A stretch of DNA of 64,000 nucleotides from Methanomassiliicoccales archaeon (GCA_004377185.1 SOIM01000058.1:247-64246), one strand, 5' to 3'; positions 27,778-57,113 are shown, numbered from the stretch's first letter. The notes: generated by a model from the letters alone, not told the origin. A program made the numbers and translations.

Positions 27778-27778
27778 C

Positions 27779-29047: not shown

Positions 29048-29048
29048 T

Positions 29049-34687: not shown

Positions 34688-34760
34688 GACCGTTGAAAAA
34701 CTCCTTCGATTAAAAACGTTTGCCGTTGGGTGGGTCGATTTGAAACAGACTGCTGCACCT

Positions 34761-34769
34761 ATTTGGGAA
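34761..34769 (+). promoter_or_regulatory. Archaeal TATA box (TTATTTATA) for the V4R gene.
   Basis: About 27 nt upstream of the first in-frame ATG (34796, NGGMMMDK), which implies a leaderless transcript. Confidence 0.4.
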
Positions 34770-34795
34770 TTATTTATACTCCAAAGACTTACTGG

Positions 34796-39066: not shown

Positions 39067-39162
39067 CTCTTTCCTCCCCTTCAGCAAAGCAATTCCAGAG
39101 ATTGGTTGAGAAAAGGAAAAACGGTATTTGTAGTTATCCGAGTGAAGAAAGACAGTAAAGCG

Positions 39163-42075
39163 TTAGTCTGAAGAATGTTCCGTGGTCTCGGGAGGTTCCA
39201 CACCTTCAGGTCTTTGTCTTCTTCTCAGTAAGAAGTAGAGTACCGAAAGTACGATAGCCAAAGAGACAACTGCTGCGACAACCGCCAACCACAGCCAATC
39301 TTCCTCAGGCTCTATTGGAGGAGGTGGGACAGGATTGTCAACAACTACTGATATGCTAACTTCAATCGAATAGTCCTCCCCATCATATGAACGGACATGT
39401 ACAGTATGATCCCCATTAGAGACAGTTGTTGTGTTCCATTCGTAACTCCATGATGTGGTGCCTGTCACTTCAATCCAAGAAGTACTGTCTATCCTAATCT
39501 CAACTTTCTCAACCGTCCCATCAATATCAGAAGCAGTGCCGTTCACGGTGATTGTGCCTGAAATCGCAGCTCCGTTAATTGGATCTGTAACGTTGCAGGT
39601 TGGGGGTTGGTTCTCAGGAGTTGCATTCGCCTCATTTGATCTTAGGCCTTCACCGAGCATATTGGTTGCGGTAACCTCATAATAGTACGTCTGGCCGTTT
39701 GTCAAACCAGTGTCCGTATGGGTGAGGACCTTGCCAATCTGCACAAGAAAAGCCTCCTCGCCCGATGCATCCCCTCGATATATTGTGTAATTCGTTATCG
39801 AGCGACCTCCGTTTTCCGAAGGTTGATCCCACGCAAGCGTTACTTCTCCGTTCCCAGGTGTTGCCTCAAGATTCCGTGGTTCTGATGGAGATGATGGGAA
39901 AGCAGGAACCACAAGAGGATACCAGTCCTTGTTCAATCCTCCCGGTATGTCATAGGGTACATCGCCTATTCCATCACTACCTGTCTGATCCTGATCTGGG
40001 CCGCTGTAGATGTCAGCGACAATGTAGTAAGCCCAGAAGTTACCACCCCATGGATAGCTGGTATTCCAGAAGTTGATGCCACTGTCAAAGGCGTGAGTTG
40101 TACTATCGCCAAAGATGTTATGATAAATGGTATTGAGCGCAGAGTGGCTGAGGGAAATGCCAATTTCATTGTTATCGAACGTATTATTCACAACAACATT
40201 CTCATGACAATCCCAGAGGTAGGCTCCATATTCATGATTCCAAATGACGGTATTGTTGCTGATGATAGTTCTCTTTGAATGGTTGAGAAGTATCCCGTTC
40301 AGTTTGTTCGACCTCACCGTGTTGTTTGCAATCAGGTTGTCAGAATTGCCGGTGGAATAGAAGTGAATGCCGTTCTCCTCGTTCGAGGCCAAGAAATTGC
40401 CAGTTATCGTATTATTCTGGTTCCATGAACTGAGTCTTATGCCATCGCGGCTATTCCCGTTCAGGCTGTTGTTCAAAATCGCGTTGCCATCAGAATATGA
40501 AAGGTATACCCCGTAAGAGTTGTCCGAGACTCTGTTGTCAACTACGATGTTGTTTTCGGAGAAGTAGAGAAATACGCCTCTGCTGTTCGAGTATGCAGTG
40601 TTCGTGTAAATGTTGCTGCGATTGGAACGATATAGGTGTATTCCGCTTCCTTTGCTCAAGTTGGCAGTGTTGTTGGCTATTTGAATGTTTGATGAGAAAC
40701 CAGCAGTAATCCCAGTATTGCCATTGCTGACATTCTGGTTCTCTATGACCACGCCTGAACAATTCGCAAGTATCACTTGCCCGGCACCAGATGGAACAGT
40801 TCCACCAGTGACATTCTTCCAATAGTAGAGAGGTTTGCTATTGACGGTGTTTGAAGTGTCGATGATATGGGTGTTCCAGTATTCAAGAGAGTCACCAGAC
40901 AGAGTAACCCCATTCTCCACCATTTGATTTTCAGTAAGTTTGTTCCTAACAGAACGTGCGCTGGCAATCCCCGTCCCGTTATTAAAGGACGCAGTGTTGC
41001 CAGTCAGGGTATTGTCGTTGGCGATCTCAAGGTAAAACCCATCCCAATTGTTGAAGGACGCATTGTTGTCAACAAACATGTTGTTGTTGGAGTCATCGAG
41101 CTCGAAGCCGTCCCCGTTGAGGACCACAGTGTTATTGAAAACATAGTTCTCATGGGATTGCACAAACCATATACCCCAGAGTATGTTTGATGCCACCGTA
41201 TTGTTCGCAATGTAGTTCTTTGACGAGAAGGCGATTTCCATCCCCGTGGTACTGTTGTCGATGTTCTGGTTCTCCACAACCACACCAGTGCAATTAGCCA
41301 AAATCACGTGACCAGCATCTGCAGGGACAGTTCCGCCGACAGCATTCTTGAGATATCGTACGGGCTTCCCGCTCACTGTGTTAGAAGCGTCGATTGTATG
41401 TGAGCTCCAGTGCTCCACGTCTTGACCATACATATAGAGTCCATTTCCGATCATCACATTGCCGGTAAGAGTATTGTTATAGGAACGAATGAGAGATATC
41501 CCATCATAGAAGTTCCAAGAGATGGTGTTGCCTGCGATAACGTTATCATTGGATTGATGGATGGTAATACCGCTTTCATTGTTCGAAATCACACTATTGT
41601 TGATGATAGTGTTGTTATGTGATTGATAGAGACTGATTCCCACAAGGTAGTAGGAAATGGTGTTATTGGTGATGGAACAGTTCTCCACATTCATCAATGA
41701 CATTGCAGGTGCAAAATCGTCATTCTTCGTCAGGGTGAATCCCGTGACGTTGACCCAATCGGTCTGCACTTCTATCCCACCCCAGTCGTAATTGCCACCG
41801 ATAATAGTCGTGTCTTTGTTCTCGCCAACAAGGCTAATGGGAGTTCTTATCCTTACAAATTCATTGTATGTCCCGTTGTACACGAAAACAGTATCACCAG
41901 GATTCGCATCATCCACTGCTCCCTGTATCGTCGTATAGTTTCCAGGACCACCTCCGCCAACGAAAAGAGTGACTGCTCTCGCATTCTCTGGCAGGACTGA
42001 CAAGATTGCACAGAAGCCACCTGCTACGACAAAAAAGGACACGATCAGACTCGCTTTTCCCCTCTTCATGCCCAA
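39163..42075 (-). CDS. NosD-like parallel beta-helix surface protein with FN3 and Ig-like domains and a C-terminal TM anchor (paralog 2).
   Basis: Signal peptide and the VTLFVGGGGPGNYTTIQGAVDDANPGDTVFVYNGTY module, followed by more than 25 beta-helix repeats and YPWGGNFW...GPDQDQTGSDGIGDVPY. The C-terminus has FN3, an Ig-like domain and EEDWLWLAVVAAVVSLAIVLSVLYFLLRRRQR. Confidence 0.8.
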   Translation of the reverse strand: MGMKRGKASLIVSFFVVAGGFCAILSVLPENARAVTLFVGGGGPGNYTTIQGAVDDANPGDTVFVYNGTYNEFVRIRTPISLVGENKDTTIIGGNYDWGGIEVQTDWVNVTGFTLTKNDDFAPAMSLMNVENCSITNNTISYYLVGISLYQSHNNTIINNSVISNNESGITIHQSNDNVIAGNTISWNFYDGISLIRSYNNTLTGNVMIGNGLYMYGQDVEHWSSHTIDASNTVSGKPVRYLKNAVGGTVPADAGHVILANCTGVVVENQNIDNSTTGMEIAFSSKNYIANNTVASNILWGIWFVQSHENYVFNNTVVLNGDGFELDDSNNNMFVDNNASFNNWDGFYLEIANDNTLTGNTASFNNGTGIASARSVRNKLTENQMVENGVTLSGDSLEYWNTHIIDTSNTVNSKPLYYWKNVTGGTVPSGAGQVILANCSGVVIENQNVSNGNTGITAGFSSNIQIANNTANLSKGSGIHLYRSNRSNIYTNTAYSNSRGVFLYFSENNIVVDNRVSDNSYGVYLSYSDGNAILNNSLNGNSRDGIRLSSWNQNNTITGNFLASNEENGIHFYSTGNSDNLIANNTVRSNKLNGILLNHSKRTIISNNTVIWNHEYGAYLWDCHENVVVNNTFDNNEIGISLSHSALNTIYHNIFGDSTTHAFDSGINFWNTSYPWGGNFWAYYIVADIYSGPDQDQTGSDGIGDVPYDIPGGLNKDWYPLVVPAFPSSPSEPRNLEATPGNGEVTLAWDQPSENGGRSITNYTIYRGDASGEEAFLVQIGKVLTHTDTGLTNGQTYYYEVTATNMLGEGLRSNEANATPENQPPTCNVTDPINGAAISGTITVNGTASDIDGTVEKVEIRIDSTSWIEVTGTTSWSYEWNTTTVSNGDHTVHVRSYDGEDYSIEVSISVVVDNPVPPPPIEPEEDWLWLAVVAAVVSLAIVLSVLYFLLRRRQRPEGVEPPETTEHSSD

Positions 42076-42317: not shown

Positions 42318-43457
42318 ATGGACTTCGAATTCGATGAGGAACATGAGCTTTTACGCAAGAGCCTAGAGAAATTCGTCGAGAAGGAGGTCGTTCCCGTGGC
42401 TCAGGAACTGGATGAGAGGGGTAAATTTCCCAGAGAGCTGTTCAGGAAGGCAGGGGAGTTGGGCTTCTTCGGCATAAAGTATCCCAAGAAATATGGCGGT
42501 TCCGAAGGCGACAACATCATGTTCTGCATCCTTTGCGAGGAGCTGGCGAAAGGTTCACTCAGCTTTGGTGCTGGGGTCATGATGCAGTCCCTGCAGAGCA
42601 TCCATTTCCCCTACAAGTATGGTAGCGAGGAGCAGAGGCAGGAAATCGTCGTGCCCGCCATTAAAGGAGAGAAACTTGGTGCCTTCGCCCTAACCGAGCC
42701 GGACGCTGGTACGGATCTAGGATCCTTAAGGACCACAGCGGACAAGGACGGTGACGAGTACGTTCTGAACGGTACGAAGGCGTGGACCACCAACGCCCAG
42801 GTCGCGGATTTCTTCACCGTCTTGGCTGTCACGGACAAGGAAAAGAAACTGAAAGGCGTGGATTTCTTCTTGGTTGAAAGGGACAATCCCGGCCTGACGG
42901 TGGGCAAGGATGTGCAGAAACTTGGACTGAGGGGGACCGAGACAGCAGAGCTGATTCTCGAAGACTGCCGCATACCTAAAGAGAACCTACTTGGAGAGGA
43001 AGGGACAGGTTATGATTCTCTCATGGATATCCTCGCAGAGATACGCATAATGACTGGGGCACTAGCTGTCGGGCTTGCTCGCTCCGCACTAGATATGGGA
43101 GTGAGATACGCCAATGAGCGCGTACAGTTCGGAAGACCTATCGGAAAGTTCCAAGCGATAAGGATGAAATTGGCGGATGTTGCCACTGAACTGGAGGCTG
43201 CAAAGCTTCTCGTATACTACTCGGCCTGGTTGCTGGACAAGGGAAAGGAATGCGGGAAAGAGGCGGCCATGGCAAAGCTTTTCGCGACCGAGATGGCTGT
43301 CAAAGCAACGGACGAAGCTTCCAGGGTGTTCGCAAGCTATGGCTTCTCAATGGAATATCCCATTCAAATGCTCCTCAGGGACGCAAGATTCCTAATCATC
43401 GGAGGAGGAACATCAGAAATCCTCAAGCTCATAATCGGAAGAGAATTGGGATTGTGA
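42318..43457 (+). CDS. Acyl-CoA dehydrogenase (short/branched-chain type).
   Basis: ACAD motifs GAFALTEPDAGTDLGSL, catalytic-base region YANERVQFGRPIG, and C-terminal IGGGTSEI. Confidence 0.9.
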   Translation: MDFEFDEEHELLRKSLEKFVEKEVVPVAQELDERGKFPRELFRKAGELGFFGIKYPKKYGGSEGDNIMFCILCEELAKGSLSFGAGVMMQSLQSIHFPYKYGSEEQRQEIVVPAIKGEKLGAFALTEPDAGTDLGSLRTTADKDGDEYVLNGTKAWTTNAQVADFFTVLAVTDKEKKLKGVDFFLVERDNPGLTVGKDVQKLGLRGTETAELILEDCRIPKENLLGEEGTGYDSLMDILAEIRIMTGALAVGLARSALDMGVRYANERVQFGRPIGKFQAIRMKLADVATELEAAKLLVYYSAWLLDKGKECGKEAAMAKLFATEMAVKATDEASRVFASYGFSMEYPIQMLLRDARFLIIGGGTSEILKLIIGRELGL

Positions 43458-43461
43458 TCAC

Positions 43462-43923
43462 ATGGCCTACAAATTCAAAGGCAAGAAGTTCGAAGAGTTC
43501 GAGATAGGGCAGGAGTTCACGACAGCCGCCAGGACGATTACCGAGGGAGATGTTTCCACGTTCGCAGGTTTGTCGGGTGACTTCAACCCACTGCATACGG
43601 ACGAGGAATACGGAAAGAGAACCCCCTTCGGAGGGAGGATCGCCCACGGATTGCTGGCTGTTGCGGTCTCTACCGGGCAAGCGAATCAGTTGGGGATCTT
43701 CGAGGGCACGACAATAGCTCTGCTGAGCATGAGCTTCAAGTATACCGGTGCAGCGAAATTCGGTGATACCATTCATACCGTTCTCAAGGTTGCCGAGAAG
43801 AAGGAGACGAGTTCGCCAGATAGAGGGATAGTGACCTTTGATGTGACCACTCTCAATCAGAGAAATGAATCCATCGTTGAGGGTCAATGGGTTGTTATGC
43901 TTCAAAGGGAGGAGGGTTCATGA
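43462..43923 (+). CDS. MaoC-like (R)-specific enoyl-CoA hydratase (hot-dog fold).
   Basis: TEGDVSTFAGLSGDFNPLHTDEEY...RIAHGLL motif. Confidence 0.85.
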   Translation: MAYKFKGKKFEEFEIGQEFTTAARTITEGDVSTFAGLSGDFNPLHTDEEYGKRTPFGGRIAHGLLAVAVSTGQANQLGIFEGTTIALLSMSFKYTGAAKFGDTIHTVLKVAEKKETSSPDRGIVTFDVTTLNQRNESIVEGQWVVMLQREEGS

Positions 43924-44663
43924 GACTGAAGGAAAGAGTTGCGATAGTCACTGGAGGGGGAAGTGGCATAGGAGAAGCCACCGTTCTGCGATTTGTCGAG
44001 GAAGGGGCCAAAGTGGCGATAGTCGATGTTGTCCTGGAAGGGGCGAACAGAGTTGCTGAAGCTGCGAAGGAGAAAGGCGGAGAGGTGCTCGTACAGCAGA
44101 CAAACATATGCAAGAAGGATGAAGTGGACAAGATGGTGGCTGCCACACTGGATCAGTTCGGTAAACTGGATATTCTGATCAACAACGCGGGAATAAACCG
44201 GGACGCGATTGCAAAGAAAATGACGGAAGAGCAGTGGGATCAGGTGATGGACGTTAACCTAAAAGGGACGTTCTTATGCTCACAAGCTGCTTCGATTCCC
44301 ATGATGGAACAGAACTACGGAAGGATAGTGAACACCGCTTCCATCGGTGCTTTGGGAAACATCGGTCAGGCGAACTATGCAGCATCGAAAGCAGGAGTGA
44401 TGGGGCTTACAAAGACTCTCGCACTTGAGCTGGCAAGGTACAACATCACCGTGAATTGTGTCTCACCAGGAGCAACAAAGACGCCGATGACTGCCAAGAT
44501 GCCTCCAGAATTCGCAGAGAAGCTCACCAAGAAGATACCTTTGAGAAGATTTGCGGAAGCAATAGAGCTGGCCAATGCGCACCTGTTCTTTGCAAGCGAA
44601 GAGTCGAGCTACGTAACGGGGCAGATAGTGTTCGTGGACGGAGGTATAAGCTTAGGGTTCTGA
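43920..44663 (+). CDS. SDR family 3-oxoacyl-(ACP/CoA) reductase (FabG-like).
   Basis: TGGGSGIGEA, NNAG and Y..ASKAG motifs. ATG at 43920 overlaps the MaoC stop (ATGA). Confidence 0.85.
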   Translation: MRLKERVAIVTGGGSGIGEATVLRFVEEGAKVAIVDVVLEGANRVAEAAKEKGGEVLVQQTNICKKDEVDKMVAATLDQFGKLDILINNAGINRDAIAKKMTEEQWDQVMDVNLKGTFLCSQAASIPMMEQNYGRIVNTASIGALGNIGQANYAASKAGVMGLTKTLALELARYNITVNCVSPGATKTPMTAKMPPEFAEKLTKKIPLRRFAEAIELANAHLFFASEESSYVTGQIVFVDGGISLGF

Positions 44664-44675
44664 AGAGGAAATATC

Positions 44676-46082
44676 ATGGTCGGAATAGTCTCGTACGGAG
44701 TGTATCTCCCCAGCTACCAGATGCCTGCTGAAGTACTGCAGAAAGCATGGGGAAAGCCCGCTGGAAAGGGCACCAAGGTGATATCGTCCTACGATGAGGA
44801 CAGTTTGACGATGGCCGTGGCAGCATCCTTGAAATGCCTTGCCGATGTTGACCTCCAGAAGGTGGATGCACTCTATTTCGCATCTACCACGCCTCCCTAT
44901 GGAGAGAAGATGAATGCGAGCGTTGTTGCGACCGCTTTGGACCTCGGCAGACACGCATTCACGATGGACATCGGTTCTTCCTTGCGCTCTGGTTCGAACG
45001 CACTGAAGGTTGCGCTGGATGCCGTCCCTTCGGGATCGAGTAACATATTGATTGTGGCCTCGGATTGCAGGCTTGCGGAACCTGGAACATATCTCGAACC
45101 GTTCTTGGGAGATGGGGCGACAGCCCTTCTGGTTGGAAAGGACAACACGATCGCGGAGATAACAGCACATCACTCCGTCTTCGATGGTTATCCAGACGTT
45201 TGGAGAAAGCAGGATGAGAGATTCCTCCGACACGATGATGTTCGATATTCCAGGAGCGAGGACTATGCCAGGAACATGAAGGAGGCCGTGGAAGGTCTCT
45301 TCGTTGAAGGAGGTTTCAAACCCGGGGACTTCTCGAAAGCGGTTCTCTTCTCACCAGATCCTAGGAGCCACGGCATATTGGCAAAGAGTCTGGGTCTTAC
45401 GCCCGAGCAGGTTCAGGATCCATTACTGGACAGGACAGGAATAATCGGTTCCGGTCACGGTCTGATGATGCTGTCTGCAACACTGGACCAAGCAAAACCT
45501 GACGATTTGATATTGTTCGCGAACTACGGGGACGGTGCGGATGCGTTTGCGTTGAAGGTCACGGATGCCATTGAGAACAAGGGATCATTGTCGGAAATCG
45601 AGAAGGAGAGAAGATCGATCAGTTCCTACACGAAGTATCTATCGTTCAGGGAACTCGTGGGCAGCCACGAACCATCAACAACGTTCTCGGCAATTCCGCT
45701 TCTGCGCAGAGAGGAGGAACTGAGCATAAGACTGCACGGAAAGAAATGCAGGGAATGCGGAACAGTAATGACTTTGGATATCCAAACGTGCCCTCACTGC
45801 AGGACGGCTGAGGAATTCGAGGATATAAAGCTCTCAAAGAAAGGAAAGATCGTGACATACAGCCAGGAGTACTACTACCCAACACCAGAACCTCCAGTTA
45901 CAATGGCCGTGGTTGATCTCGAAGGAGGGGGGAGAATCCTTGCTCAAATGACGGATTCAACAGCGGATGAGGTCAAGGTTGATATGCCAGTGGAGATGAC
46001 GTTCAGGAAACTCCATGAAGGAGGAGGGTTCATAAACTACTCCTGGAAGTGCCGTCCCGTCCGCGAAGGGGGGAGCGGATGA
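44676..46082 (+). CDS. Fusion protein of an HMG-CoA-synthase-like condensing-enzyme domain (N, ~340 aa) and a DUF35 Zn-ribbon/OB-fold domain (C, ~120 aa).
   Basis: N-terminal VGIVSYGVYLPSYQMPAEVLQKAWGK matches the archaeal HMGCS N-terminus. The C-terminus has CRECGTVMTLDIQTCPHCRT plus an OB-fold (KIVTYSQ...MAVVDLEGGGRILAQMTD). The expected ACY Cys motif is not evident (region reads DIGSSLRSGSNAL). Confidence 0.75.
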   Translation: MVGIVSYGVYLPSYQMPAEVLQKAWGKPAGKGTKVISSYDEDSLTMAVAASLKCLADVDLQKVDALYFASTTPPYGEKMNASVVATALDLGRHAFTMDIGSSLRSGSNALKVALDAVPSGSSNILIVASDCRLAEPGTYLEPFLGDGATALLVGKDNTIAEITAHHSVFDGYPDVWRKQDERFLRHDDVRYSRSEDYARNMKEAVEGLFVEGGFKPGDFSKAVLFSPDPRSHGILAKSLGLTPEQVQDPLLDRTGIIGSGHGLMMLSATLDQAKPDDLILFANYGDGADAFALKVTDAIENKGSLSEIEKERRSISSYTKYLSFRELVGSHEPSTTFSAIPLLRREEELSIRLHGKKCRECGTVMTLDIQTCPHCRTAEEFEDIKLSKKGKIVTYSQEYYYPTPEPPVTMAVVDLEGGGRILAQMTDSTADEVKVDMPVEMTFRKLHEGGGFINYSWKCRPVREGGSG

Positions 46083-47263
46083 CCTTCAAAGACAAGATCG
46101 CGATCATTGGCGCTGGCTGCACCAAGTTCGGAGAGAACTTCAGCATGAGCTACGGCGATATGGTGTACGAAGCCGCAAAGGAAGCGTTCAATGATGCTGG
46201 AGTGGAAGGAAAGGACATCGATGCCGCTTGGCTAGGTACTGCCTTTCCAGATGCTGGCGTTTACAAAGGTAGGTCTGGAATGGATCTGGCTGAGCCCCTA
46301 GGCTTGTTCGATATTCCCATAACGAGAGTTTCAAATTACTGTGCCACGGGGGGAGATGCATTTAGAAATGGGTGCAACAGCCTACTTTCGGGTGAGAGTG
46401 ATCTGGTGCTTGCTCTAGGTGCGGAGAAGCTTAGAGATAGGACACCTCAAGACAGTATCGTAAGAATGATGGTCGATACTGGCCATCCAATCTATCAGAA
46501 GGGTTTCACAGCTGCCGGGACTTTCGCTGTTGTGGGCACGAGATACATGCATGTCTATGGAGATATTACAGAACAGCTTGCGAAAATATCAGTGAAGAAC
46601 CACTACCACGGTTCGTTGAACCCCAAAGCCCACTATCAGAAACCGATAACACTGGAAAAGGCGTTGAAATCGCCCATGGTTGCATTCCCGGTCAATCTCA
46701 TGGGGAGTTGTCCGACCACGGATGGATCTGCCGCAGTTGTAATGACAAGGGCGGAGGACGCAAAGAAGTACACGGACGACCATGTTCTCCTCAAGGGATA
46801 CTCACTTTCCATCTCCACTGGGTGGGACCTTCCCTTCTACGATCCGGATTACGATTTCCTTGGTTACCGAGCTACGCAGGTGGCTGGAGAAAAAGCCTAC
46901 AAACAAGCGGGAATCGAGAACCCGTTCAAGGAGCTGGACCTGGCCGAGATGCATGATTGCTTCAACGTGGTGGAGTTCATCACCTACGAAGATTTGGGAT
47001 TATGTGACAAGGGCAAAGCGAGGGAGCTTGTGGACAGTGAGGTAACCACTTTGGGCGGAGAACTGCCGGTCAATGTGAGCGGAGGTCTGTTAAGTTGCGG
47101 ACATCCAGTTGGTGCGACAGGAGTAAGAATGCTATATGAGCTCACCAAACAACTCCAAGGAAAGGCGGAGAAAAGACAGGTGGAGAATGCAAGACTGGCA
47201 TTGGCTCACAATATCGGAGGCCCCGGTGCAGTAGCATCAATTACAATCCTCGGAGCGAGGTAG
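46079..47263 (+). CDS. SCP-x-type thiolase (thiolase partner of the DUF35/HMGCS complex).
   Basis: Catalytic Cys in SNYCATGGDAF and C-terminal GGLLSCGHPVGATG. ATG overlaps the fusion-gene stop (ATGA) and is preceded by GGGGGGAG. Confidence 0.85.
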   Translation: MTFKDKIAIIGAGCTKFGENFSMSYGDMVYEAAKEAFNDAGVEGKDIDAAWLGTAFPDAGVYKGRSGMDLAEPLGLFDIPITRVSNYCATGGDAFRNGCNSLLSGESDLVLALGAEKLRDRTPQDSIVRMMVDTGHPIYQKGFTAAGTFAVVGTRYMHVYGDITEQLAKISVKNHYHGSLNPKAHYQKPITLEKALKSPMVAFPVNLMGSCPTTDGSAAVVMTRAEDAKKYTDDHVLLKGYSLSISTGWDLPFYDPDYDFLGYRATQVAGEKAYKQAGIENPFKELDLAEMHDCFNVVEFITYEDLGLCDKGKARELVDSEVTTLGGELPVNVSGGLLSCGHPVGATGVRMLYELTKQLQGKAEKRQVENARLALAHNIGGPGAVASITILGAR

Positions 47264-47267
47264 GAAC

Positions 47268-47666
47268 ATGAAGAAGAATCCCATAAGGGTCCTAATCGCA
47301 AAGCCTGGCTTGGACGGACATGACAGGGGAGCGAAGGTCGTTGCCCTGGCGCTGAAGCAAGCGGGAATGGAGGTCATCTATACCGGGCTTAGACAAACGG
47401 TGGACCAGATCACGAACACCGCTCTCCAAGAAGATGTACAAGTAGTAGGTTTGAGCATCCTGTCCGGTGCGCATCTACCAATCACCAAGAAGCTATTGCA
47501 GAAGATGAAGAAGGAAGGACTGGAGGAGATGATGGTCTTGGTGGGAGGGAACGTACCAAAAGCGGACATCGCCAAAATGAAGAAACTGGGTGTCAAAGAG
47601 GTCTTCCCAACCGGATCAAGATTTGAAGATATCGTTTCGTTCATCCAATCAAACGTTCCAAATTAG
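47268..47666 (+). CDS. B12-binding small subunit of a split methylmalonyl-CoA-mutase-family acyl-CoA mutase.
   Basis: DxHxxG B12-binding motif (LDGHDRGAKVVA) and a Rossmann-like fold, 132 aa. Confidence 0.85.
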   Translation: MKKNPIRVLIAKPGLDGHDRGAKVVALALKQAGMEVIYTGLRQTVDQITNTALQEDVQVVGLSILSGAHLPITKKLLQKMKKEGLEEMMVLVGGNVPKADIAKMKKLGVKEVFPTGSRFEDIVSFIQSNVPN

Positions 47667-47697
47667 TTGGTTCATCCAATTTCACAAGGTGTGAGAG

Positions 47698-49305
47698 ATG
47701 AAGAAGAAGAAGATAGAACTGCCAGATGTTGTGCTCGAATCTGGAATCAAGGTGAAACCCATCTATGGACCGGAGGATGTGAAGGATATAGATTTCAAGG
47801 AGGACATAGGAGCACCGGGAGAGTATCCGTTCACGAGAGGGATTCACAAGTACATGTACAGGTTCCGCCCCTTCACGATGAGGCAGTACTCTGGCTTTGC
47901 GACAGCCACAGAAACGAACAAGCGGTTCAAGTACCTCATCAAGCACGGACAGACTGGATTGAATGTTGCCTTTGACCTGCCTACTCAGTGCGGGCTGGAT
48001 TCTGATGACCCATTGGCGGAAGGAGAGGTCGGTAGGGTTGGGATGGCGATTGACACTTTGAGAGACATGGAAGATGCATTCAAAGGAATCCCACTTGACA
48101 AGATCAGCACTTCGCTGACGATCAACTCCATGGCCCCAATAATGCTGGCAATGTATGTGACTGTTGCAGAGAAGCAGGGTGTTCCGCCGGAAGAGGTCAG
48201 AGGGACGCTGCAGAATGATATCCTCAAGGAGTACATTGGACGGGGGACCTGGGTGTTCCCGGTCGAACCTTCCATCAAGTTGATAGGAGATACGATTGAG
48301 TACTGTTCAAAGAACCTACCGAAATACTACCCAGTAAGCGTGTGCGGGTATCATATAAGAGAGTCAGGGGCCAATCCAGTTCAAGAGATAGCATATGCGT
48401 TTCTCATAGCGAAGGCTTACATTCAACATGTTCTGGATAGAGGACTGGATGTGGATGATTTCGTTCCAAGATTCTCGTTCAACTTCGACATTCACGGTAA
48501 CCTTTTCGAACAGATAGCGAAGTTCAGAGCCGCAAGAAGACTGTGGGCGAGGATTGTCAAGGAAGACCTGGGTGCCAAGAACCCGAAATCCATGCAAATG
48601 AAGATGATAGCTGGCGGAGGTGGAGGAGGATTAACGATAGAACAGCCGGAGAACAACATTGTGAGAGGAGCGTACTACGCTTTGATCTCCGCTCTGAGCG
48701 GTACCCAGACGATGGCGCTGTGCTCTTATGATGAAGCATACACCATACCCTCCGAGAAGGCAGCTGTGATCTCACTCAGGACGATGCAGATACTCCTAGA
48801 TGAGATGGGATTGCGAGATACAGTCGACCCACTGGCAGGTTCCTATTACATCGAAAGCCTTACCTCTGAACTTGAGAAGAAAATCGTGGACATGATGGAG
48901 AAGGTTGAGAAAAAAGGTGGAATCGTAAAGGCGGTTGCGGACGGATACATTCAGAATGAAGTTGCCAAGCAGGCCTTTCTGTTGGAGAAGGGAATACAGG
49001 AAGGAAAGATCATCAAAGTAGGCGTGAACAAATACCAGGCGGAGGAGGAAGAGAGGGAGATAGAGTTCCACGATTACAAGGCAGAGGAGGCTGAAGTGCA
49101 GATCAAGAGGCTCAAGAAGGTGAAGAAGGATAGGGATGACTCCAAGGTTGCCAAGGCCCTCAAGGAACTCAAGAAAGCTGCTGAAACGGACGAGAACTTG
49201 ATGGATTATGTGATTGATGCGGTCAGAGCCTATGCGACGGTCGGGGAGATAACCTCAACGATGAAGGAAGTCTACGGAGAGTTCAAAGAACCTGTGAGAT
49301 TGTAG
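47698..49305 (+). CDS. Acyl-CoA mutase large (catalytic TIM-barrel) subunit, MCM family.
   Basis: FTMRQYSGFATATETNKRFKYLIKHGQTGLNVAFDLPTQCGLDSD and GGGGGLTIEQPENNIVR regions typical of MCM alpha N-domains. Confidence 0.9.
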   Translation: MKKKKIELPDVVLESGIKVKPIYGPEDVKDIDFKEDIGAPGEYPFTRGIHKYMYRFRPFTMRQYSGFATATETNKRFKYLIKHGQTGLNVAFDLPTQCGLDSDDPLAEGEVGRVGMAIDTLRDMEDAFKGIPLDKISTSLTINSMAPIMLAMYVTVAEKQGVPPEEVRGTLQNDILKEYIGRGTWVFPVEPSIKLIGDTIEYCSKNLPKYYPVSVCGYHIRESGANPVQEIAYAFLIAKAYIQHVLDRGLDVDDFVPRFSFNFDIHGNLFEQIAKFRAARRLWARIVKEDLGAKNPKSMQMKMIAGGGGGGLTIEQPENNIVRGAYYALISALSGTQTMALCSYDEAYTIPSEKAAVISLRTMQILLDEMGLRDTVDPLAGSYYIESLTSELEKKIVDMMEKVEKKGGIVKAVADGYIQNEVAKQAFLLEKGIQEGKIIKVGVNKYQAEEEEREIEFHDYKAEEAEVQIKRLKKVKKDRDDSKVAKALKELKKAAETDENLMDYVIDAVRAYATVGEITSTMKEVYGEFKEPVRL

Positions 49306-50502
49306 GTGGATAGTATGAAACCCCTTCTGGACGGAGTAAGAATCCTGGACATGTCACAGATGCTGGCAGGTCCGTATTGCTCAATGTTGATGGCTGATTT
49401 GGGAGCGGAAGTGATTAAGATCGAGAGCCCTGGTGAAGGAGACAGAATCAGGCAGATGGGCATCTACAGGATTGGTGGACAGAGCGCATATTTCCTCAGC
49501 ATAAACAGGAACAAGAAGAGCGTTACGTTGAACCTCAAGTCAGAGAAGGGGAGAGAAATATTCTACGAACTTGTGAAGAAGTCGGATGTTGTGTTCGACA
49601 ACCTTAGACCTGCAACATTACAGAAGCTGGGAGCGAGTTACGAACACGTGAAAGGACACAATCCTAAGATTATTTCATGCTCCATTACTGCTTTCGGACC
49701 GGACGGGCCATACGCTGACCACCCAGCTTTTGACCTGACACTACAGGCGATATCTGGAGCTATGTCCTACACTGGAGAACCTGGTCGACCTCCCGTGAGA
49801 ATGGGATTGCCAATGGGTGATCTGGCAGGTGCACTGATGGCGGCCTTTTCAATCTCTTCGGCCTTGTACAAGAGAGAGAAGACGGGAGAAGGCTGCAAGT
49901 TGGATATCAGTCTCTTGGACAGTGTCGTGTCGCTTCACACTTACGTCGTTCAATACCTTGTGGCAGGATCTCCTATACCTGAACAGATAGGTTCGGGACA
50001 TATCTCAGTCGTTCCGTACGGTGCGTTCAAGACCGCTGACGGATGGATTACCATTGCCATTTTCACCGAAAGGTTCTGGGAGAACTTCTGCAACATTCTG
50101 GGAGTGCCAGAGCTGGCAAAGGACCCAAGATTCACGACCAACAACGACAGGAGCAAAAACCGAGGGGTTCTAATCCCAATGATTGAAGAGAAACTCATAG
50201 CAAAGACAACAGATGAATGGGTGGAAATCCTCAGCAAGGAAAGAATCCCGTGCGGAGCTCTGAACACAATGGACAAGGTTCTGCAAGATGAACAGCTGAG
50301 ACATCGGGACATGATCGTGGCGGTTGAGATTCCAGAGGGTGGTAAGACGGAGATGCTAGGAAATCCAGTCAAAGCGAAGGATATGGACCAGATGTATCGA
50401 TTCTCTCCGGAACTTGGTGAGCATACGGAGCAAATCCTGACAGAAATTCTAGGACTAGAAGAACTAGAAATTAACGAACTCAGAGACAATGGAATCATAT
50501 AG
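49306..50502 (+). CDS. Family III CoA-transferase (CaiB/BaiF/BbsEF type).
   Basis: N-terminal GVRILDMSQMLAGPYCSMLMADLGAEVIKIE with the catalytic Asp region. Its start abuts the mutase stop. Confidence 0.85.
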   Translation: MDSMKPLLDGVRILDMSQMLAGPYCSMLMADLGAEVIKIESPGEGDRIRQMGIYRIGGQSAYFLSINRNKKSVTLNLKSEKGREIFYELVKKSDVVFDNLRPATLQKLGASYEHVKGHNPKIISCSITAFGPDGPYADHPAFDLTLQAISGAMSYTGEPGRPPVRMGLPMGDLAGALMAAFSISSALYKREKTGEGCKLDISLLDSVVSLHTYVVQYLVAGSPIPEQIGSGHISVVPYGAFKTADGWITIAIFTERFWENFCNILGVPELAKDPRFTTNNDRSKNRGVLIPMIEEKLIAKTTDEWVEILSKERIPCGALNTMDKVLQDEQLRHRDMIVAVEIPEGGKTEMLGNPVKAKDMDQMYRFSPELGEHTEQILTEILGLEELEINELRDNGII

Positions 50503-50555: not shown

Positions 50556-50588
50556 CCCTCCATCGGCTTCTGTAGGATTTGAACTCTA
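50556..50588 (-). repeat. 33 nt element CCCTCCATCGGCTTCTGTAGGATTTGAACTCTA (copy 1), made of the stop codon plus the immediate 3' flank of a beta-helix paralog.
   Basis: Identical to 55596-55628. The last 3 nt are the TAG stop of the 50586-53375 gene. Contains a 5 bp-stem hairpin, TGTAG-N10-CTACA. Confidence 0.7.
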
Positions 50589-53342
50589 CAAACGATTTTC
50601 AGAATCTTCCTCAGATGGCGTCTCTGGTTGATCTTCCTCTTTGGATTTCTTCTTTCTGAGAAGAGCGAAGGTGACTAGTAATAGGGCAATCAATAGAGCG
50701 ATTGTCACGACAACTGCTATCCACAACCAATCTTGATCGGGTTCTTGTGAGGACGATGGAACAGGGTTGTCTACAATTACCGTTACGTTTGTTACAGTTG
50801 AGTAGTTAGATCCATCGTAGGAACGAGCATAGATTGTGTAATTGCCGTTTGGTACAGCTGTTGTATCCCAGTCATAGCTCCACGTTGTGGTGCCTGTGAC
50901 TTCTATCCACGAGGTTATGTTTATTCGAATCTCTACTTTCTCGACTGCTCCGTCAGGATCCGAGGCGGTGCCGCTAATCGTATAAATGCTTAACAAAGTG
51001 GAGCCTGGACTTGGAGCATTAATTGTACAGGTTGGGGGTCGGTTTTCAAGTGCGGTGACTTCAACTTGCCTGGCAGTGTAGTTTATCAGTCCACCTGTAT
51101 CTTCGACCTCGAGGCGGACTGTGTAGTCCCCTGGAGTGGAATACTGATGTTGGGCTGTCTTTGTGGTCGACCATGTTGTGTCCCATATACCGTCATCCTC
51201 CCAATCCCAGCGGACCACCAGATCGGCAACAGAATCTTCGTAATCTGAGGATGAAGAGGCGTTCACCGTGAAGATTGTGCTCACATTTCCACCAATAGGT
51301 GAGAGTGTGAAATGGGCGGTCGGCGGACGGTTTGGGATGGGCGTAAAGGTGACATTCACAGACGAGATCTCAGAGGGGTTTCCGGAATTATCCCAAGCAC
51401 AGGCTTCTATAAGGTTTGGGCCGGAATTGAGATCAAAAGAGGTGTTCCATGACGATGTCCCCATGGCATCTGACCAGAATCCTCCATTCAATCGCACTTT
51501 CACATCTTGAAGACCACTGCCACCGACGTCAAAGGCTGTACCAGTCACATTGATGCGGGGAGATTCGAAGTTCTGTCCCTCGGTAGGTGATACTATGGAC
51601 AAATAGGGTGGGAATGTGTCACCGCCGTGGGCGACCATGAGGGGATAATCATCCTGTATGTCTACGTCGATGAGGTAAGGAGTGTCTCCAATGCCATCCG
51701 GGTCTGGGCACACATCTTGGTTTGGGCCACTACAGTCATCCACACCAGTGTAATCGGACCAATAATTGCCACCCGAAGGGTAGTTGATGTTCCACCAGTT
51801 GATATCAGTGTCGTCATGCGGCTTGTCGTGAGCCTGTTGTGCATTCTGTATGATGTTGTTATGAAAAATAGTGTTGTTGTGGGAGGCGTATATAGATATG
51901 CCGTATTGGCGATTCGACAAGATGATATTGCCAGTTATGGTGTTTCTTTTGGAAAGAATAAGGGAGATTCCGTCCTCGTTGTTCGAGTACGCTTTGTTGT
52001 CTATGATTGTATTGAAGGCGGAAAGACCAAGGTTGATGCCATCGCCGTCGTTGTAGAAGGCGATGTTGTTGTTGATGATGATGTCAGAGGAGATGTCAAG
52101 GATGATGCCATTATTCCCATTCGAGTAGACAGTGTTGTTCGAGATGTTGCTGTCACGAGATTCTTCAACGTAGATGCCTTCACCGTTATCGAATGCGGTA
52201 TTATTGGTGACACTGCAACGGGAGGACTCATCGATGTGGAGGCCCTCACTGTTATCGAATGCGGTATTATTGGTGACTAGATTGTCGTCAGACATGTACA
52301 GAAAGATGCCAGCCGTGTTGTTCCGAACGGAGTTGTTGGCAACCCTATTGCCTGATGAAAAGCCGAGTAGGATTCCCACAGAAGCGTTGGTGATGTTTTG
52401 GTTCTCCACAACCACGTTCGAGCAGTTTGCAAGTATCACTTGCCCAGCATTCTGAGGGATTGTTCCTCCATTGGCGTTCTTCCAATAGTAGATGGGTCTG
52501 CCATCTATAGTGCTAGAGGTGTCGATAGAATGACTGTTCCAGTGCTCCAGCAAATCGCCTCGAATTTGAATTCCATTCTTAACCATCACGTTGCTACTGA
52601 TCGAACTATTGCCAGCATAATACAGCATGATCCCTACTTTGCTATTCGAGATGTTGTTGCCTACGACGGTGATGTTGTAGGATTGGCCAAGAGAGATGCC
52701 GTGCACCCGATTGTCTGAGATAGTGTTGTTGGCAACGATATTGTCGTCGGAATCGGTGAGAGTAATGCCAAACCAATTGCTCAAAGATACGATGTTGTTT
52801 ACTATGATATTGTCGTCGGAATCGGTGAGTGCAATGGCTTTCCAATTGCTCAAAGATACGATGTTGTTTACTATGATATTCTTGTCAGAAAAGTCGAGAT
52901 AAATGCCGTACTCGTTGCTGAAAACGATATTGTTGGCTACGAAGCACATCTGAACAGAATTGAGTGAGATTCCTGCGTCGGGCCAAAAAGACCCGCTGTT
53001 TGTTACGGTGAATCCCGTGACATTTGCCCAGTCAGCGGTTATGTGGATCGCATCCAAGATTCCACGACCGTCAATTATGGTTGTGTTTCTGTCCTCCCCT
53101 ATCAATGAGAGGGATTCATGGAGAATTATGTTCTCTGAATATGTCCCGTTGTAGACATAGACAGTGTCGCCTGGTCCTGCGTCATCTATCGCGTCCTGTA
53201 TCCTGGTGTAGTTTCCCGGACCCATTCCGCCCACGTAGAGAGTAGAGGCACTTGCATTTGAAGGAATGAGCGAAACGACGAAGCTGAATGAGCCGAGTAT
53301 CACGAGAAACACGGTTGTCAAGGTGAGTTCTGTCCTTTTCAT
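50586..53342 (-). CDS. NosD-like parallel beta-helix surface protein with PKD and Ig-like domains and a C-terminal TM anchor (paralog 3).
   Basis: Has the STLYVGGMGPGNYTRIQDAIDDAGPGDTVYVYNGTY module, beta-helix repeats, YPSGGNYWSDYTGVDDCSGPNQDVCPDPDGIGDTPY, a PKD domain (WDWEDDGIWDT) and an Ig-like domain. The C-terminus has DQDWLWIAVVVTIALLIALLLVTFALLRKKKSK plus an acidic tail. Confidence 0.8.
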   Translation of the reverse strand: MKRTELTLTTVFLVILGSFSFVVSLIPSNASASTLYVGGMGPGNYTRIQDAIDDAGPGDTVYVYNGTYSENIILHESLSLIGEDRNTTIIDGRGILDAIHITADWANVTGFTVTNSGSFWPDAGISLNSVQMCFVANNIVFSNEYGIYLDFSDKNIIVNNIVSLSNWKAIALTDSDDNIIVNNIVSLSNWFGITLTDSDDNIVANNTISDNRVHGISLGQSYNITVVGNNISNSKVGIMLYYAGNSSISSNVMVKNGIQIRGDLLEHWNSHSIDTSSTIDGRPIYYWKNANGGTIPQNAGQVILANCSNVVVENQNITNASVGILLGFSSGNRVANNSVRNNTAGIFLYMSDDNLVTNNTAFDNSEGLHIDESSRCSVTNNTAFDNGEGIYVEESRDSNISNNTVYSNGNNGIILDISSDIIINNNIAFYNDGDGINLGLSAFNTIIDNKAYSNNEDGISLILSKRNTITGNIILSNRQYGISIYASHNNTIFHNNIIQNAQQAHDKPHDDTDINWWNINYPSGGNYWSDYTGVDDCSGPNQDVCPDPDGIGDTPYLIDVDIQDDYPLMVAHGGDTFPPYLSIVSPTEGQNFESPRINVTGTAFDVGGSGLQDVKVRLNGGFWSDAMGTSSWNTSFDLNSGPNLIEACAWDNSGNPSEISSVNVTFTPIPNRPPTAHFTLSPIGGNVSTIFTVNASSSSDYEDSVADLVVRWDWEDDGIWDTTWSTTKTAQHQYSTPGDYTVRLEVEDTGGLINYTARQVEVTALENRPPTCTINAPSPGSTLLSIYTISGTASDPDGAVEKVEIRINITSWIEVTGTTTWSYDWDTTAVPNGNYTIYARSYDGSNYSTVTNVTVIVDNPVPSSSQEPDQDWLWIAVVVTIALLIALLLVTFALLRKKKSKEEDQPETPSEEDSENRL

Positions 53343-53379
53343 TGCCTTTCCTCTAATTGTGAGACCTACCCGCATGCCC

Positions 53380-55595: not shown

Positions 55596-55628
55596 CCCTC
55601 CATCGGCTTCTGTAGGATTTGAACTCTA
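55596..55628 (-). repeat. 33 nt element CCCTCCATCGGCTTCTGTAGGATTTGAACTCTA (copy 2).
   Basis: Identical to copy 1. The last 3 nt are the TAG stop of the 55626-56966 gene. It lies between that gene and the start of paralog 4. Confidence 0.7.
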
Positions 55629-56876
55629 AGTATGTTCTCCAGACTCCTCTATGAGAGAAGTATCAGCAGCTTCTTCACCCTTTTCCTTCTTCTTCCTTCC
55701 AAAAAGCACTAACAAAGTCAGAAAGCCGATAAGTACTACGGCTACTAGCACCAAAAGCCATACTTCTTCAAGAACGGATTCCTCATGATCGTAGAATGGA
55801 TAGCGATCCTTGCTGTCTCCCCACCCAATACTGTAAGGTGAGTCAGCTATGCCATCACTACCAGGCTGATCTTGATCAGGGCCACTCTTCTCGTCAACTC
55901 CACCATAGTCGCTCCAGTAGTTGCCGCCCGATGGATATCCATTATCCCACTGGTTGCGATAGCCATCATCGAATGCCTGGTCCTTGTTGTTGAGGAAATG
56001 ATTATGGTAGACTGAGTTGTCGTTTGAGGAACCAAGACCAATACCGAACCTGCTGTTCAAAGAAATCGTATTGTTGAAAATAGTGTTGCCGTCACTCCCT
56101 TCAACTTGGATACCGACCTCATTCTCAGAAAAAGTGCTATTGGCAATCCAGTTACCGCTCGAGAGATAAAGAAGTATTCCTTTTTTTGTGTTCGAGGCGG
56201 TCAGATTCTCAATCGTATTGTAAGAGCTGTAGTGCGTCAAGACCATGCCGTGTCCGCTGTTCAAGGCGCGGTTATCTGCAATATAGTTATAACTCGACCG
56301 TTCAAGTCGGATGCCGTCCCAGGTGTTCGAGAAGTCGCTGCTGATGATTGAGTTGTTGTGAGAGTCAATAAGACTAATGCCGTGTCTGCCGTCCGAAGCC
56401 GAGATGTTGATGATTGTGTTGTTGTCTGAGGAATCAAGGATCAGACCGACATCATTGCTCATGGCAACAATATTCGTAATAGAACAATTCTCAGAATCGA
56501 GAAGTTCTATTCCAGCATCTCCTATGCGCGATCCGCTATCTGATACTGTGAATTCTGTGATATTGACCCAATCCGCAGAAACATGAACTACATCTCCAGT
56601 TCCTTCACCTATGATCGATGTCGTTCTTCTATCCTCCCCAGCAAGGGTGAGAGGTTTGTCAATCGCAAGATTTTCATGATACACTCCGTTGGAGACATAG
56701 ACAATATCACCAGGTTTTGCGTTGCCTATGGCATCTTGTATCGTTGTGTAGTTGCCAGGACCTGTTCCACCAACGTATAGAGTAGTTGCCTCCACCTTCT
56801 GAAACATAAGCATGGAGCCAACATAAAAAGTGCCGACACAGACCACGAGCGCAATGGACAGACTTGCTCTTTTCAT
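55626..56876 (-). CDS. NosD-like parallel beta-helix surface protein, short form with a TM anchor (paralog 5).
   Basis: Has the TTLYVGGTGPGNYTTIQDAIGNAKPGDIVYVSNGVY module and YPSGGNYWSDYGGVDEKSGPDQDQPGSDGIADSPY...DRYPF. The C-terminus has EEVWLLVLVAVVLIGFLTLLVLFGRKKKEKGEE. Start placed at internal MKRASLSIAL. Confidence 0.75.
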   Translation of the reverse strand: MKRASLSIALVVCVGTFYVGSMLMFQKVEATTLYVGGTGPGNYTTIQDAIGNAKPGDIVYVSNGVYHENLAIDKPLTLAGEDRRTTSIIGEGTGDVVHVSADWVNITEFTVSDSGSRIGDAGIELLDSENCSITNIVAMSNDVGLILDSSDNNTIINISASDGRHGISLIDSHNNSIISSDFSNTWDGIRLERSSYNYIADNRALNSGHGMVLTHYSSYNTIENLTASNTKKGILLYLSSGNWIANSTFSENEVGIQVEGSDGNTIFNNTISLNSRFGIGLGSSNDNSVYHNHFLNNKDQAFDDGYRNQWDNGYPSGGNYWSDYGGVDEKSGPDQDQPGSDGIADSPYSIGWGDSKDRYPFYDHEESVLEEVWLLVLVAVVLIGFLTLLVLFGRKKKEKGEEAADTSLIEESGEHT

Positions 56877-57113
56877 CCTATTCCTCTTCCATCCCACCAT
56901 CTTCTCTGTTGGAATTATGGAGAGAATATGTATTTGTGATTTCTGGTACAGCCTTTTGTGTATCATAGAGAATGCTCTCCTAGCACAGATATCCTCGAGA
57001 GAAAATGATGATAGAGCAAGGTTCCTGCTGGTTCTGGGCTGAAATCATCGAAGTAGATAGGGACTGAGTGTTCCGACATATTCAGCATCCGCCAATGGGA
57101 AACTCAGACACTA

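Follow-up and report, generated by a model that had tools for sequence, protein, structure and literature searches.

The closest described system to the genes considered here is the iaa pathway, by which the plant hormone indoleacetate is degraded anaerobically. In this pathway IaaB serves as ligase, IaaGH as phenylsuccinyl-CoA/benzylmalonyl-CoA mutase, IaaL as phenylsuccinyl-CoA transferase, acting both intra- and intermolecularly, and IaaF of Aromatoleum aromaticum as decarboxylating benzylmalonyl-CoA dehydrogenase; all these enzymes are encoded by iaa-type operons (PMC8360864). IaaF defines a subclass of the acyl-CoA dehydrogenases (ACADs) whose signature is the replacement of the catalytic YEG by GGG and which takes in the Ferroglobus placidus protein WP_012966786 and the Thermoplasmatales protein EMR74870, and earlier work had already pointed out the iaa system in Ferroglobus and Thermoplasmatales (PMC8360864). 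The activities of IaaF, IaaL and IaaB have been demonstrated for the Aromatoleum enzymes only. Here we describe an eight-gene operon at positions 42318-50502 of a 64,000-nt stretch of DNA (the window) from a Methanomassiliicoccales archaeon (GCA_004377185.1 SOIM01000058.1:247-64246). Proteins of the window correspond to TET89263.1 and TET89269.1 of a Methanomassiliicoccales/Thermoplasmata metagenome-assembled genome (GCA_030589315.1).

Together with divergently oriented lactamase genes, this operon likely encodes an iaa-type pathway that would convert a gamma-lactam derived from indoleacetate to 2-aminobenzoyl-CoA and acetyl-CoA. We infer all substrate assignments in this archaeon, and the substrate may be a close aromatic relative of indoleacetate. 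The proteins belong to the enzyme families of this pathway and carry the diagnostic motifs, the gene order is kept in related genomes and the genes are orthologous to the published F. placidus cluster. A GGG-type ACAD, a two-subunit B12-dependent mutase in the same operon as the IaaF-type gene and a two-subunit hydantoinase-like lactamase are all found in the window. A previous sequence-only reading of this DNA had suggested an uncharacterised archaeal pathway, but the genes match the described iaa system (PMC8360864).

Acyl-CoA dehydrogenase, mutase and lactamase genes

The first gene of the operon (42318-43457, plus strand) encodes an ACAD with all three ACAD domains present (Pfam). Where YEG is expected the protein reads RFLIIGGGTSEILKL, and G362-G363-G364 occupy the catalytic site (RFLIIG362GGTSEILKL). 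The GGG is found in 115 of the 120 closest homologues and in 24 of 28 ACADs detected across 80 metagenomic loci of the mutase described below. The published F. placidus orthologue of IaaF, WP_012966786 (P0359), is a homologue with 58% identity. Judged by this motif, the enzyme, which had been taken for a plain ACAD in the sequence-only reading, is a predicted IaaF-type decarboxylating (2-amino)benzylmalonyl-CoA dehydrogenase and no normal dehydrogenase. Its closest solved structures are butyryl-CoA dehydrogenases, while methylsuccinyl-CoA dehydrogenase (6es9) and glutaryl-CoA dehydrogenase match more poorly. Weak matches of the CoA-transferase of the operon to succinate-glutarate transferase and of the ACAD to glutaryl-CoA dehydrogenase had led to the idea of an ethylmalonyl-CoA/methylsuccinyl-CoA (C5-dicarboxylate) module or a hypothetical glutaryl-CoA mutase, which was dropped because the GGG of the ACAD is of the IaaF type.

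The mutase is encoded by a B12-binding small subunit gene (IaaH-like, 47268-47666, plus strand; TIGR00640, 149 bits) and a large subunit gene (IaaG-like, 47698-49305, plus strand; Pfam MM_CoA_mutase, 661 bits). Like methylmalonyl-CoA mutase (MCM), ICM, IcmF and HCM, it combines a TIM-barrel large subunit and a DxHxxG B12 subunit (D16-x-H18-x-x-G21, read from the translation) with the MCM-type Tyr and Arg for the carboxylate: Tyr64 and Arg182 correspond to Tyr89/Arg207 of P. shermanii MCM, and Tyr218-His219 is kept as well. HcmA is the best solved relative of the large subunit (497 bits). However, the MCM strand H328-S-Q-T-S-G-W-S is replaced by I304-A-G306-G-G-G-G-G311 in the window protein. 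MCM and HCM both keep the original strand, and the other mutases aligned are of the H-x-Q type or carry non-Gly residues, never a Gly run.

This poly-Gly strand is present in 108/120 of the closest homologues (72-95% identity; Thermoplasmata, Anaerolineae, Aminicenantes) and, minor variants included, in all 69 full-length metagenome mutases recovered by a profile of the clade. In the plasmid collection no poly-Gly mutase was detected, the best match being 52% identical. In a neighbour-joining tree the poly-Gly mutases are monophyletic and stand apart from Sinorhizobium ScpA and from mutases with MeaB as neighbour. A MeaB/ArgK gene was found neither beside the poly-Gly mutases of 80 metagenomic loci (L088-L167) nor near that of the window, while MeaB adjoins conventional mutases in L010, L013, L059 and L168. 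The window mutase thus differs from MCM, ICM and HCM in its poly-Gly strand, the missing MeaB partner, its own clade and its other neighbours, and it would act as an IaaG-like arylsuccinyl-CoA/benzylmalonyl-CoA mutase.

A housekeeping MCM, which would work together with short-chain beta-oxidation (C4-C5, e.g., derived from isoleucine or butyrate) and a succinyl-CoA-dependent CoA-transferase, is very unlikely. The sequence-only reading had named housekeeping MCM as the case that would speak against its own model. It is true that Tyr89, Arg207 and Tyr-His are conserved, that butyryl-CoA dehydrogenases are the best solved relatives of the ACAD, that the MaoC, SDR and thiolase of the operon resemble PhaJ, PhaB and acetoacetyl-CoA thiolase, and that a methylmalonyl-CoA-epimerase-like gene occurs in some related loci. 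However, an ACAD with GGG lacks the catalytic Glu of a normal dehydrogenase, the H-x-Q-T-S-G-W-S strand is replaced, and the mutase clade lies apart from ScpA. In addition, neither MeaB nor a carboxylase or epimerase is located near the window mutase, and poly-Gly mutases are accompanied by lactamase, ACAD, molybdenum (Mo) hydroxylase and IorA genes and not by those of a propionate pathway.

These neighbours were determined by clustering the open reading frames (ORFs) of the 80 metagenomic poly-Gly loci and counting partners in those 35 loci that measure 8 kb or more. HydA/B, the two lactamase subunits, are encoded at 21 of these 35 loci, an ACAD lies directly upstream of the B12 small subunit at 17, a three-subunit Mo hydroxylase resembling XDH/4-hydroxybenzoyl-CoA reductase is present at 16 and a family III CoA-transferase at 15. 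Rarer partners are AMP-ligases, thiolases, FadB, an OYE-type reductase and a methylmalonyl-CoA-epimerase-like gene. IorA adjoins the cluster in at least six loci, and in L088 a bona fide IorA follows immediately after the mutase (TIGR03336, 788 bits vs cut-off 651). The Mo hydroxylase, OYE and lactamase neighbours had also prompted the idea of an N-heterocycle fermentation of the nicotinate or pyrimidine type, which was set aside in favour of the iaa match. As a separate observation, loci L096-L101 represent a bacterial variant without ACAD, in which a Mo hydroxylase, CoA-transferase, OYE reductase, small ferredoxin, epimerase-like gene, the mutase and HydA/B occur together; this layout suggests that either the downstream route or the substrate differs.

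In the window, the lactamase genes hydB (35327-37003) and hydA (37003-39087) are located upstream of the operon on the minus strand. HydA, the Hydantoinase_A-type subunit, scores 655 bits with NCBIfam CapA and 368 bits with ApcC. HydB is a Hydantoinase_B-type, IaaC/E-like subunit (NCBIfam CapB, 328 bits), and in the PDB it matches N-methylhydantoinase and 5-oxoprolinase best, well above acetone carboxylase. Both subunits resemble caprolactamase, N-methylhydantoinase and 5-oxoprolinase far more than they do the carboxylases for acetone or acetophenone, and carboxylation of ketones such as acetone or butanone was therefore ruled out. HydA/HydB are predicted to form an ATP-dependent 2-oxoindoleacetyl(-CoA) gamma-lactamase. 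Next to hydB a small V4R/XylR_N sensor, probably an effector-binding regulator, is encoded (34730-35320, plus strand; Pfam V4R 52 bits, XylR_N 33 bits). The sequence-only reading had overlooked the lactamase genes and the sensor just upstream; we count both into the system. In one related genome (L006) hydA directly adjoins the ACAD gene in divergent orientation, with no NosD gene in between, and the V4R gene is kept beside hydB. The NosD-like gene that separates lactamase genes and operon in the window is found at the same place in L005 and is absent in L006.

HydA has an actin-like ATPase fold, like reactivases of B12 enzymes. It could hence be asked whether HydA/HydB reactivate or chaperone the poly-Gly mutase in an ATP-dependent manner, in substitution for MeaB, which is missing beside all poly-Gly mutases, and HydA/B are indeed often encoded directly after the mutase in the same operon. 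We consider this extremely improbable: both subunits are full-length and close to true lactamases, they are encoded on the opposite strand in the window, and the published assignment as lactamase accounts for their presence. No literature linking a hydantoinase or oxoprolinase with a mutase was found.

The operon and its counterparts in other genomes

All eight ORFs of 42318-50502 are closely packed and co-directional on the plus strand, as the sequence-only reading had stated and as the ORF calls together with Pfam and NCBIfam bear out. From 5' to 3' the intergenic distances, read from the sequence, are +4, -4 (ATGA), +12, -4 (ATGA), +4, +31 and 0/+9 nt. Both ATGA overlaps had been placed correctly, the one joining the MaoC and SDR genes (43923/43920) and the one at 46082/46079. 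The claim that all gaps measure 0-13 nt fails at one junction, where a spacing of 31 nt separates the B12 small subunit gene from the large subunit gene. A single transcription unit is accepted.

Behind the ACAD gene follows a gene for a MaoC/(R)-specific enoyl-CoA hydratase (43462-43923, plus strand), a single-domain protein (Pfam MaoC_dehydratas, 77.5 bits) whose PDB matches are PhaJ-type hydratases and which would act as 2-aminocinnamoyl-CoA hydratase. The gene is syntenic in L005-L007, L087-L089 and L103. The SDR (43920-44663, plus strand; Pfam adh_short_C2, 228 bits) is similar to FabG/acetoacetyl-CoA reductase in NCBIfam and would serve as 3-hydroxyacyl-CoA dehydrogenase. The last gene, starting at 49315 (ATG) or 49306 (GTG) and ending at 50502 (plus strand), encodes a family III CoA-transferase (putatively IaaL-like; Pfam CoA_transf_3, 439 bits). 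Its best PDB match is succinate-hydroxymethylglutarate CoA-transferase with 282 bits, while BbsF reaches 167 bits. A family III CoA-transferase gene also follows the mutase in L090, L103, L125, L148 and L153, and two CoA-transferase subfamilies occur in the related loci, one about 50% and the other about 30% identical to the window enzyme. The enzyme may catalyze CoA transfer from succinyl-CoA to (2-aminophenyl)succinate, intramolecular CoA transfer, or both.

The identical order of all eight genes is present in two further metagenome-assembled genomes of Thermoplasmata/Methanomassiliicoccales (L005 and L006, 71-95% identity), which answers the synteny check proposed in the sequence-only reading. 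A Brocadiaceae contig (L007) carries the first six genes of the operon up to the end of the contig.

The published, predicted iaa cluster of F. placidus DSM 10642 (CP001899.1, about 1.992-2.014 Mb) has the order OYE, RDH-like Fe-S protein, 3HCDH, thiolase, DUF35, hotdog protein, HydA, HydB, V4R, ACAD, B12 small subunit, mutase, regulator, ferredoxin and AOR. Identities between the window and F. placidus proteins are 58% for HydA, 72% for HydB, 45% for V4R, which there sits between lactamase and ACAD, 58% for the ACAD, 55% for the B12 small subunit, 66% for the mutase large subunit and 60% for AOR. F. placidus also carries both diagnostic motifs, with KMIAGGGGSG in the mutase and IIGGGTSE in the ACAD, and shares the pairing of a thiolase with DUF35. 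In contrast to the window, the DUF35 protein of F. placidus is a separate 139-aa protein without HMGS-like domain, a 3HCDH and a hotdog protein replace SDR and MaoC, a family III CoA-transferase gene is missing within 10 kb of the ACAD, and all genes lie on one strand. The RDH-like Fe-S protein of the F. placidus locus, 406 aa long and encoded beside the OYE-type reductase (L172, 1281-2501), scores above the reductive dehalogenase family cut-off (TIGR02486, 211 vs 160 bits).

With the iaa systems of A. aromaticum and Azoarcus evansii the window shares the GGG ACAD, the two-subunit B12 mutase, the family III CoA-transferase, the hydantoinase-like lactamase and a beta-oxidation end module, and thus the predicted sequence from arylsuccinyl-CoA via benzylmalonyl-CoA and cinnamoyl-CoA to benzoyl-CoA and acetyl-CoA. 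It differs by the absence of the IaaB ligase, the binding-protein transporter and the XDH-type hydroxylase, by the presence of MaoC and SDR and of a fused, inert HMGS-like::DUF35 protein with the thiolase, and by its archaeal host.

The sequence-only reading had modelled the operon on the benzylsuccinate (bbs) and alkylsuccinate pathways, which follow the addition of fumarate to a hydrocarbon. Part of this logic stands, namely a modified beta-oxidation of a substituted succinyl-CoA with family III CoA-transferase, mutase and DUF35-thiolase. The parallels on the family level are clear: the bbs operon of anaerobic toluene degradation has the same layout of CoA-transferase, ACAD, hydratase, SDR and thiolase, and BbsAB pairs a DUF35 subunit with an SCP2-type HDxF thiolase that cleaves an aromatic 3-oxoacyl-CoA. 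Moreover, a mutase has been proposed for the rearrangement of alkylsuccinyl-CoA (PMC8360864). The identity as a bbs system, however, does not hold. In bbs operons neither a mutase nor a lactamase is present, and the lactamase partner would have no role there. BbsEF and BbsCD are pairs, whereas the window has one CoA-transferase gene and one SDR gene; the hydratase is of the MaoC type instead of a crotonase like BbsH, and BbsG carries VEG rather than GGG (PMC8360864). The link to alkanes also fails in that no glycyl-radical enzyme or activase is encoded in the window or in syntenic loci, and Bbs proteins score below other relatives (BbsA 37 vs 67 bits, BbsB 173 vs 222 bits, BbsF 167 vs 282 bits). 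A benzylsuccinate or alkylsuccinate pathway is hence highly improbable for this operon.

The HMGS-like::DUF35 fusion and its thiolase

A fused HMG-CoA synthase (HMGS)-DUF35 protein has been characterized together with its thiolase in Pseudomonas fluorescens (PfACAT/HMGS-DUF35, Nat Commun 2026). The fused protein is without the E-C-H-N catalytic tetrad of HMGS, the thiolase depends on the histidine of HDxF, and the complex splits acetoacetyl-CoA and produces no HMG-CoA (PMC12960953). The thiolase motifs Cys/HDxF/GHx are essential in PfACAT and in BbsB, and no pathway was assigned to about 1000 HMGS/ACAT/DUF35 loci of bacteria (PMC12960953). The complex is related to PhlACB, MucABC and the thiolase/HMGCS/DUF35 complex of archaea.

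The fourth gene of the operon (44676-46082, plus strand) encodes a 468-aa protein of this type. It is a single unbroken ORF, and more than 100 homologues of 466-475 aa share its architecture; the fusion seen in the sequence-only reading is therefore genuine, and the frameshift or assembly error considered there is not found. Residues 1 to ~325 form an HMGS/PhlA-like domain (NCBIfam PRK04262, 225 bits, under the cut-off of 244), followed by a zinc ribbon with C358, C361, C372 and C375, a Cys4 set that is invariant across 18 diverse homologues, and an OB fold at residues 385-444 (Pfam OB_ChsH2_C, 48 bits). Profile searches, proposed earlier to confirm the domains, thus found the HMGS/PhlA fold and the OB fold, but Pfam HMG_CoA_synt_N/C did not match the protein. 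In the PDB, residues 2 to ~303 match PhlA (5m3k, 1e-34) and the HMGS of the archaeal thiolase/HMGCS/DUF35 complex (4.5e-32), and residues ~331-464 match archaeal DUF35 (1.6e-17) and BbsA (1.9e-8).

According to the alignment to 6esq_I, the tetrad E-C-H-N is replaced by T71, L103, S226 and I256, and the Cys and Glu positions are non-catalytic in all 18 aligned homologues. Contrary to the condensing enzyme assumed before, the HMGS-like domain is, as predicted from these residues, catalytically inert and a non-catalytic partner of the thiolase.

The SCP2-type thiolase is encoded by the next gene (46079-47263, plus strand; NCBIfam PRK06157, 434 bits, exceeding the cut-off). Its catalytic motifs are kept with Cys88 (NYCATGG), His292 (HDCF) and His342 (GHPVG), that is, the Cys, HDxF and GHx of the degradative BbsB/PfACAT type. 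The thiolase would be the catalytic subunit for the thiolysis of 2-aminobenzoylacetyl-CoA, and the two proteins presumably form a complex in this archaeon as well. As in PfACAT/HMGS-DUF35, the fused protein is encoded beside the thiolase, the E-C-H-N residues are lost and those of the thiolase are kept. The window pair differs in that it is located inside a catabolic operon, whereas the P. fluorescens locus was regarded by the authors as without pathway context, and in the low identity of the window fusion to the solved chains (9vbo_A, 88 bits).

The fusion is not unprecedented, as it had seemed, since at least 590 loci in species-level genomes encode it and one member has been characterized (PMC12960953). 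In nearly all of 80 loci examined from this set, the thiolase gene lies directly 3' of the fusion gene. Fusion-thiolase pairs of Desulfobacterota and Chloroflexota (L023, L032, L051, L052, L059, L073) often adjoin odd acyl-CoA mutases, whose specificity positions fit no known class (e.g., RFQVGF/RSQIGF for RQY, and no Arg207 equivalent). A Paraburkholderia mutase obtained in the plasmid search (L171), beside which no fusion-thiolase pair was seen, carries FGVVCGG in the H-x-Q strand. The mutases of the L023-type loci and of L171 look like uncharacterised mutase subfamilies.

Proposed route, pathway entry and remaining genes

From these assignments the following route can be proposed. HydA/HydB would use ATP to open 2-oxindole-3-acetate, free or as CoA ester, which would yield (2-aminophenyl)succinate in the free or the CoA-bound form, and the family III CoA-transferase would create or move the thioester with succinyl-CoA. 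The B12 mutase would then move the thioester carbon to yield (2-aminobenzyl)malonyl-CoA, with Tyr64 and Arg182 holding the carboxylate, and its strand of six Gly residues may leave space for the aryl group, by analogy to the published account of GGG in IaaF. The GGG ACAD would remove CO2 and two electrons in a single step, giving 2-aminocinnamoyl-CoA, from which the MaoC hydratase and the SDR would produce the 3-oxoacyl-CoA. Finally, the thiolase, in complex with the inert HMGS-like::DUF35 protein, would cleave this to 2-aminobenzoyl-CoA and acetyl-CoA.

Several points weigh against an iaa-type pathway. Within the 64-kb window neither an XDH-type Mo hydroxylase, as would serve to hydroxylate indole C2, nor an IaaB-type or other aryl-CoA ligase was detected, so that the entry into the pathway is unexplained, and enzymes that would process 2-aminobenzoyl-CoA further were not seen there either. 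IaaF slowly turns over alkylmalonyl-CoAs of C4 and longer, which makes a non-indolic substrate possible (PMC8360864). The literature read assigns functions to the IaaGH mutase and the lactamase without assay. The orthology to iaa is read from the published F. placidus orthologue, and to our knowledge growth of F. placidus on indoleacetate has never been demonstrated. As for the window genes, HydA/B lie on the opposite strand with a NosD-like gene between them and the operon, the ACAD has butyryl-CoA dehydrogenases as closest solved structures, and the CoA-transferase is equally near to several characterized enzymes, none of which is singled out.

Some of these points would also fit the same enzyme logic with another lactam or with an aryl- or alkyl-substituted succinate as substrate, for which oxindole or quinolinone derivatives, phenylsuccinate-like compounds and medium-chain alkylmalonyl- or alkylsuccinyl-CoA are candidates. 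The missing indoleacetate hydroxylase and ligase and the activity of IaaF with alkylmalonyl-CoAs could be read in this way, as could the accessory genes, which differ greatly among loci (OYE, epimerase, Mo hydroxylase, AOR), and the RDH-family gene in the F. placidus cluster. However, the sole characterized members of the system serve indoleacetate degradation, the gamma-lactamase partner suits the oxindole ring, and IorA adjoins the cluster in at least six loci, in L088 above the equivalog cut-off. A different substrate therefore appears unlikely to us, and the gamma-lactam derived from indoleacetate is preferred.

For the entry into the iaa-type pathway, free 2-oxindole-3-acetate, indoleacetyl-CoA made by IOR, the AOR-family gene, the family I CoA-transferase or genes elsewhere in the genome are possibilities. 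Two of these are encoded in the window. The two-subunit family I CoA-transferase (60276-62035, minus strand; Pfam CoA_trans, 99 + 77 bits) is a possible accessory; in L005 and L006 its counterpart, 91-93% identical, likewise lies downstream of the operon. The AOR-family gene (aldehyde:ferredoxin oxidoreductase) at the edge of the window (63306-63989, minus strand; Pfam AFOR_C, 176 bits), likewise a possible accessory, is conserved in L005 and L006; the protein matches just the C-terminal half of the AFOR_C profile, and the 5' part of the gene lies beyond 63989.

The remaining window contains six large NosD/parallel-beta-helix genes, some with Ig/PKD domains (15898-17670, 39163-42075, 50586-53375, 53380-55515, 55626-56966 and 58144-60204), which probably encode surface proteins; the protein of 53380-55515 has no exact match on record. 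A second, conventional beta-oxidation block on the minus strand (9762-13186) comprises a thiolase of 409 aa, a separate DUF35 protein of 146 aa, a 3HCDH and a crotonase. Compared to the F. placidus iaa cluster, the thiolase of this block is 41%, the DUF35 protein 38% and the 3HCDH 45% identical, and the operon thiolase is 37% identical. A 292-aa radical-SAM protein (32601-33479, minus strand) scores above the NifB equivalog cut-off (TIGR01290, 350 vs 344 bits); it spans only the N-terminal radical-SAM part of the model, and no further nif genes were seen nearby. Housekeeping genes at 17848-30296 encode a four-subunit 2-oxoacid:ferredoxin oxidoreductase with an AMP-forming acetyl-CoA synthetase, and a leucine-type block of an HMGL-like synthase, large and small aconitase subunits and an isopropylmalate/isocitrate dehydrogenase.

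The operon is thus likely an archaeal copy of a described pathway and neither a new kind of system nor a new hydrocarbon pathway. Its own twists are minor: the inert HMGS-DUF35 partner of the thiolase, MaoC and SDR in replacement of crotonase and 3HCDH, and the lack of local entry enzymes. Generic names such as butyryl-CoA dehydrogenase, methylmalonyl-CoA mutase and HMG-CoA synthase are turned into a coherent pathway in an uncultured archaeal lineage, and two sequence diagnostics, GGG in the ACAD and the poly-Gly strand in the mutase, are at hand for it. The poly-Gly signature and the absent MeaB may be useful marks of IaaG-type mutases. As the loci recovered indicate, iaa-type modules occur commonly among the Thermoplasmata, Chloroflexota, Aminicenantes, Desulfobacterota and Brocadiaceae of sediments and the subsurface.

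In addition, a fused inactive HMGS-DUF35/thiolase pair is now found inside a defined catabolic operon, after the sole prior study saw no pathway context, and it may be a useful by-product that in other phyla such pairs often adjoin divergent acyl-CoA mutases. As a tentative and rather doubtful extension, these Methanomassiliicoccales-related archaea would run an iaa variant without ligase and Mo hydroxylase, starting from tryptophan via indolepyruvate:ferredoxin oxidoreductase or from plant 2-oxindole-3-acetate, and at the same time the inert HMGS-like::DUF35 protein would be a general scaffold of thiolases for bulky aromatic or branched 3-oxoacyl-CoAs. If this is true, the approximately 1000 'orphan' HMGS/ACAT/DUF35 loci, many of which adjoin acyl-CoA mutases of unknown specificity, would gain a physiological role.

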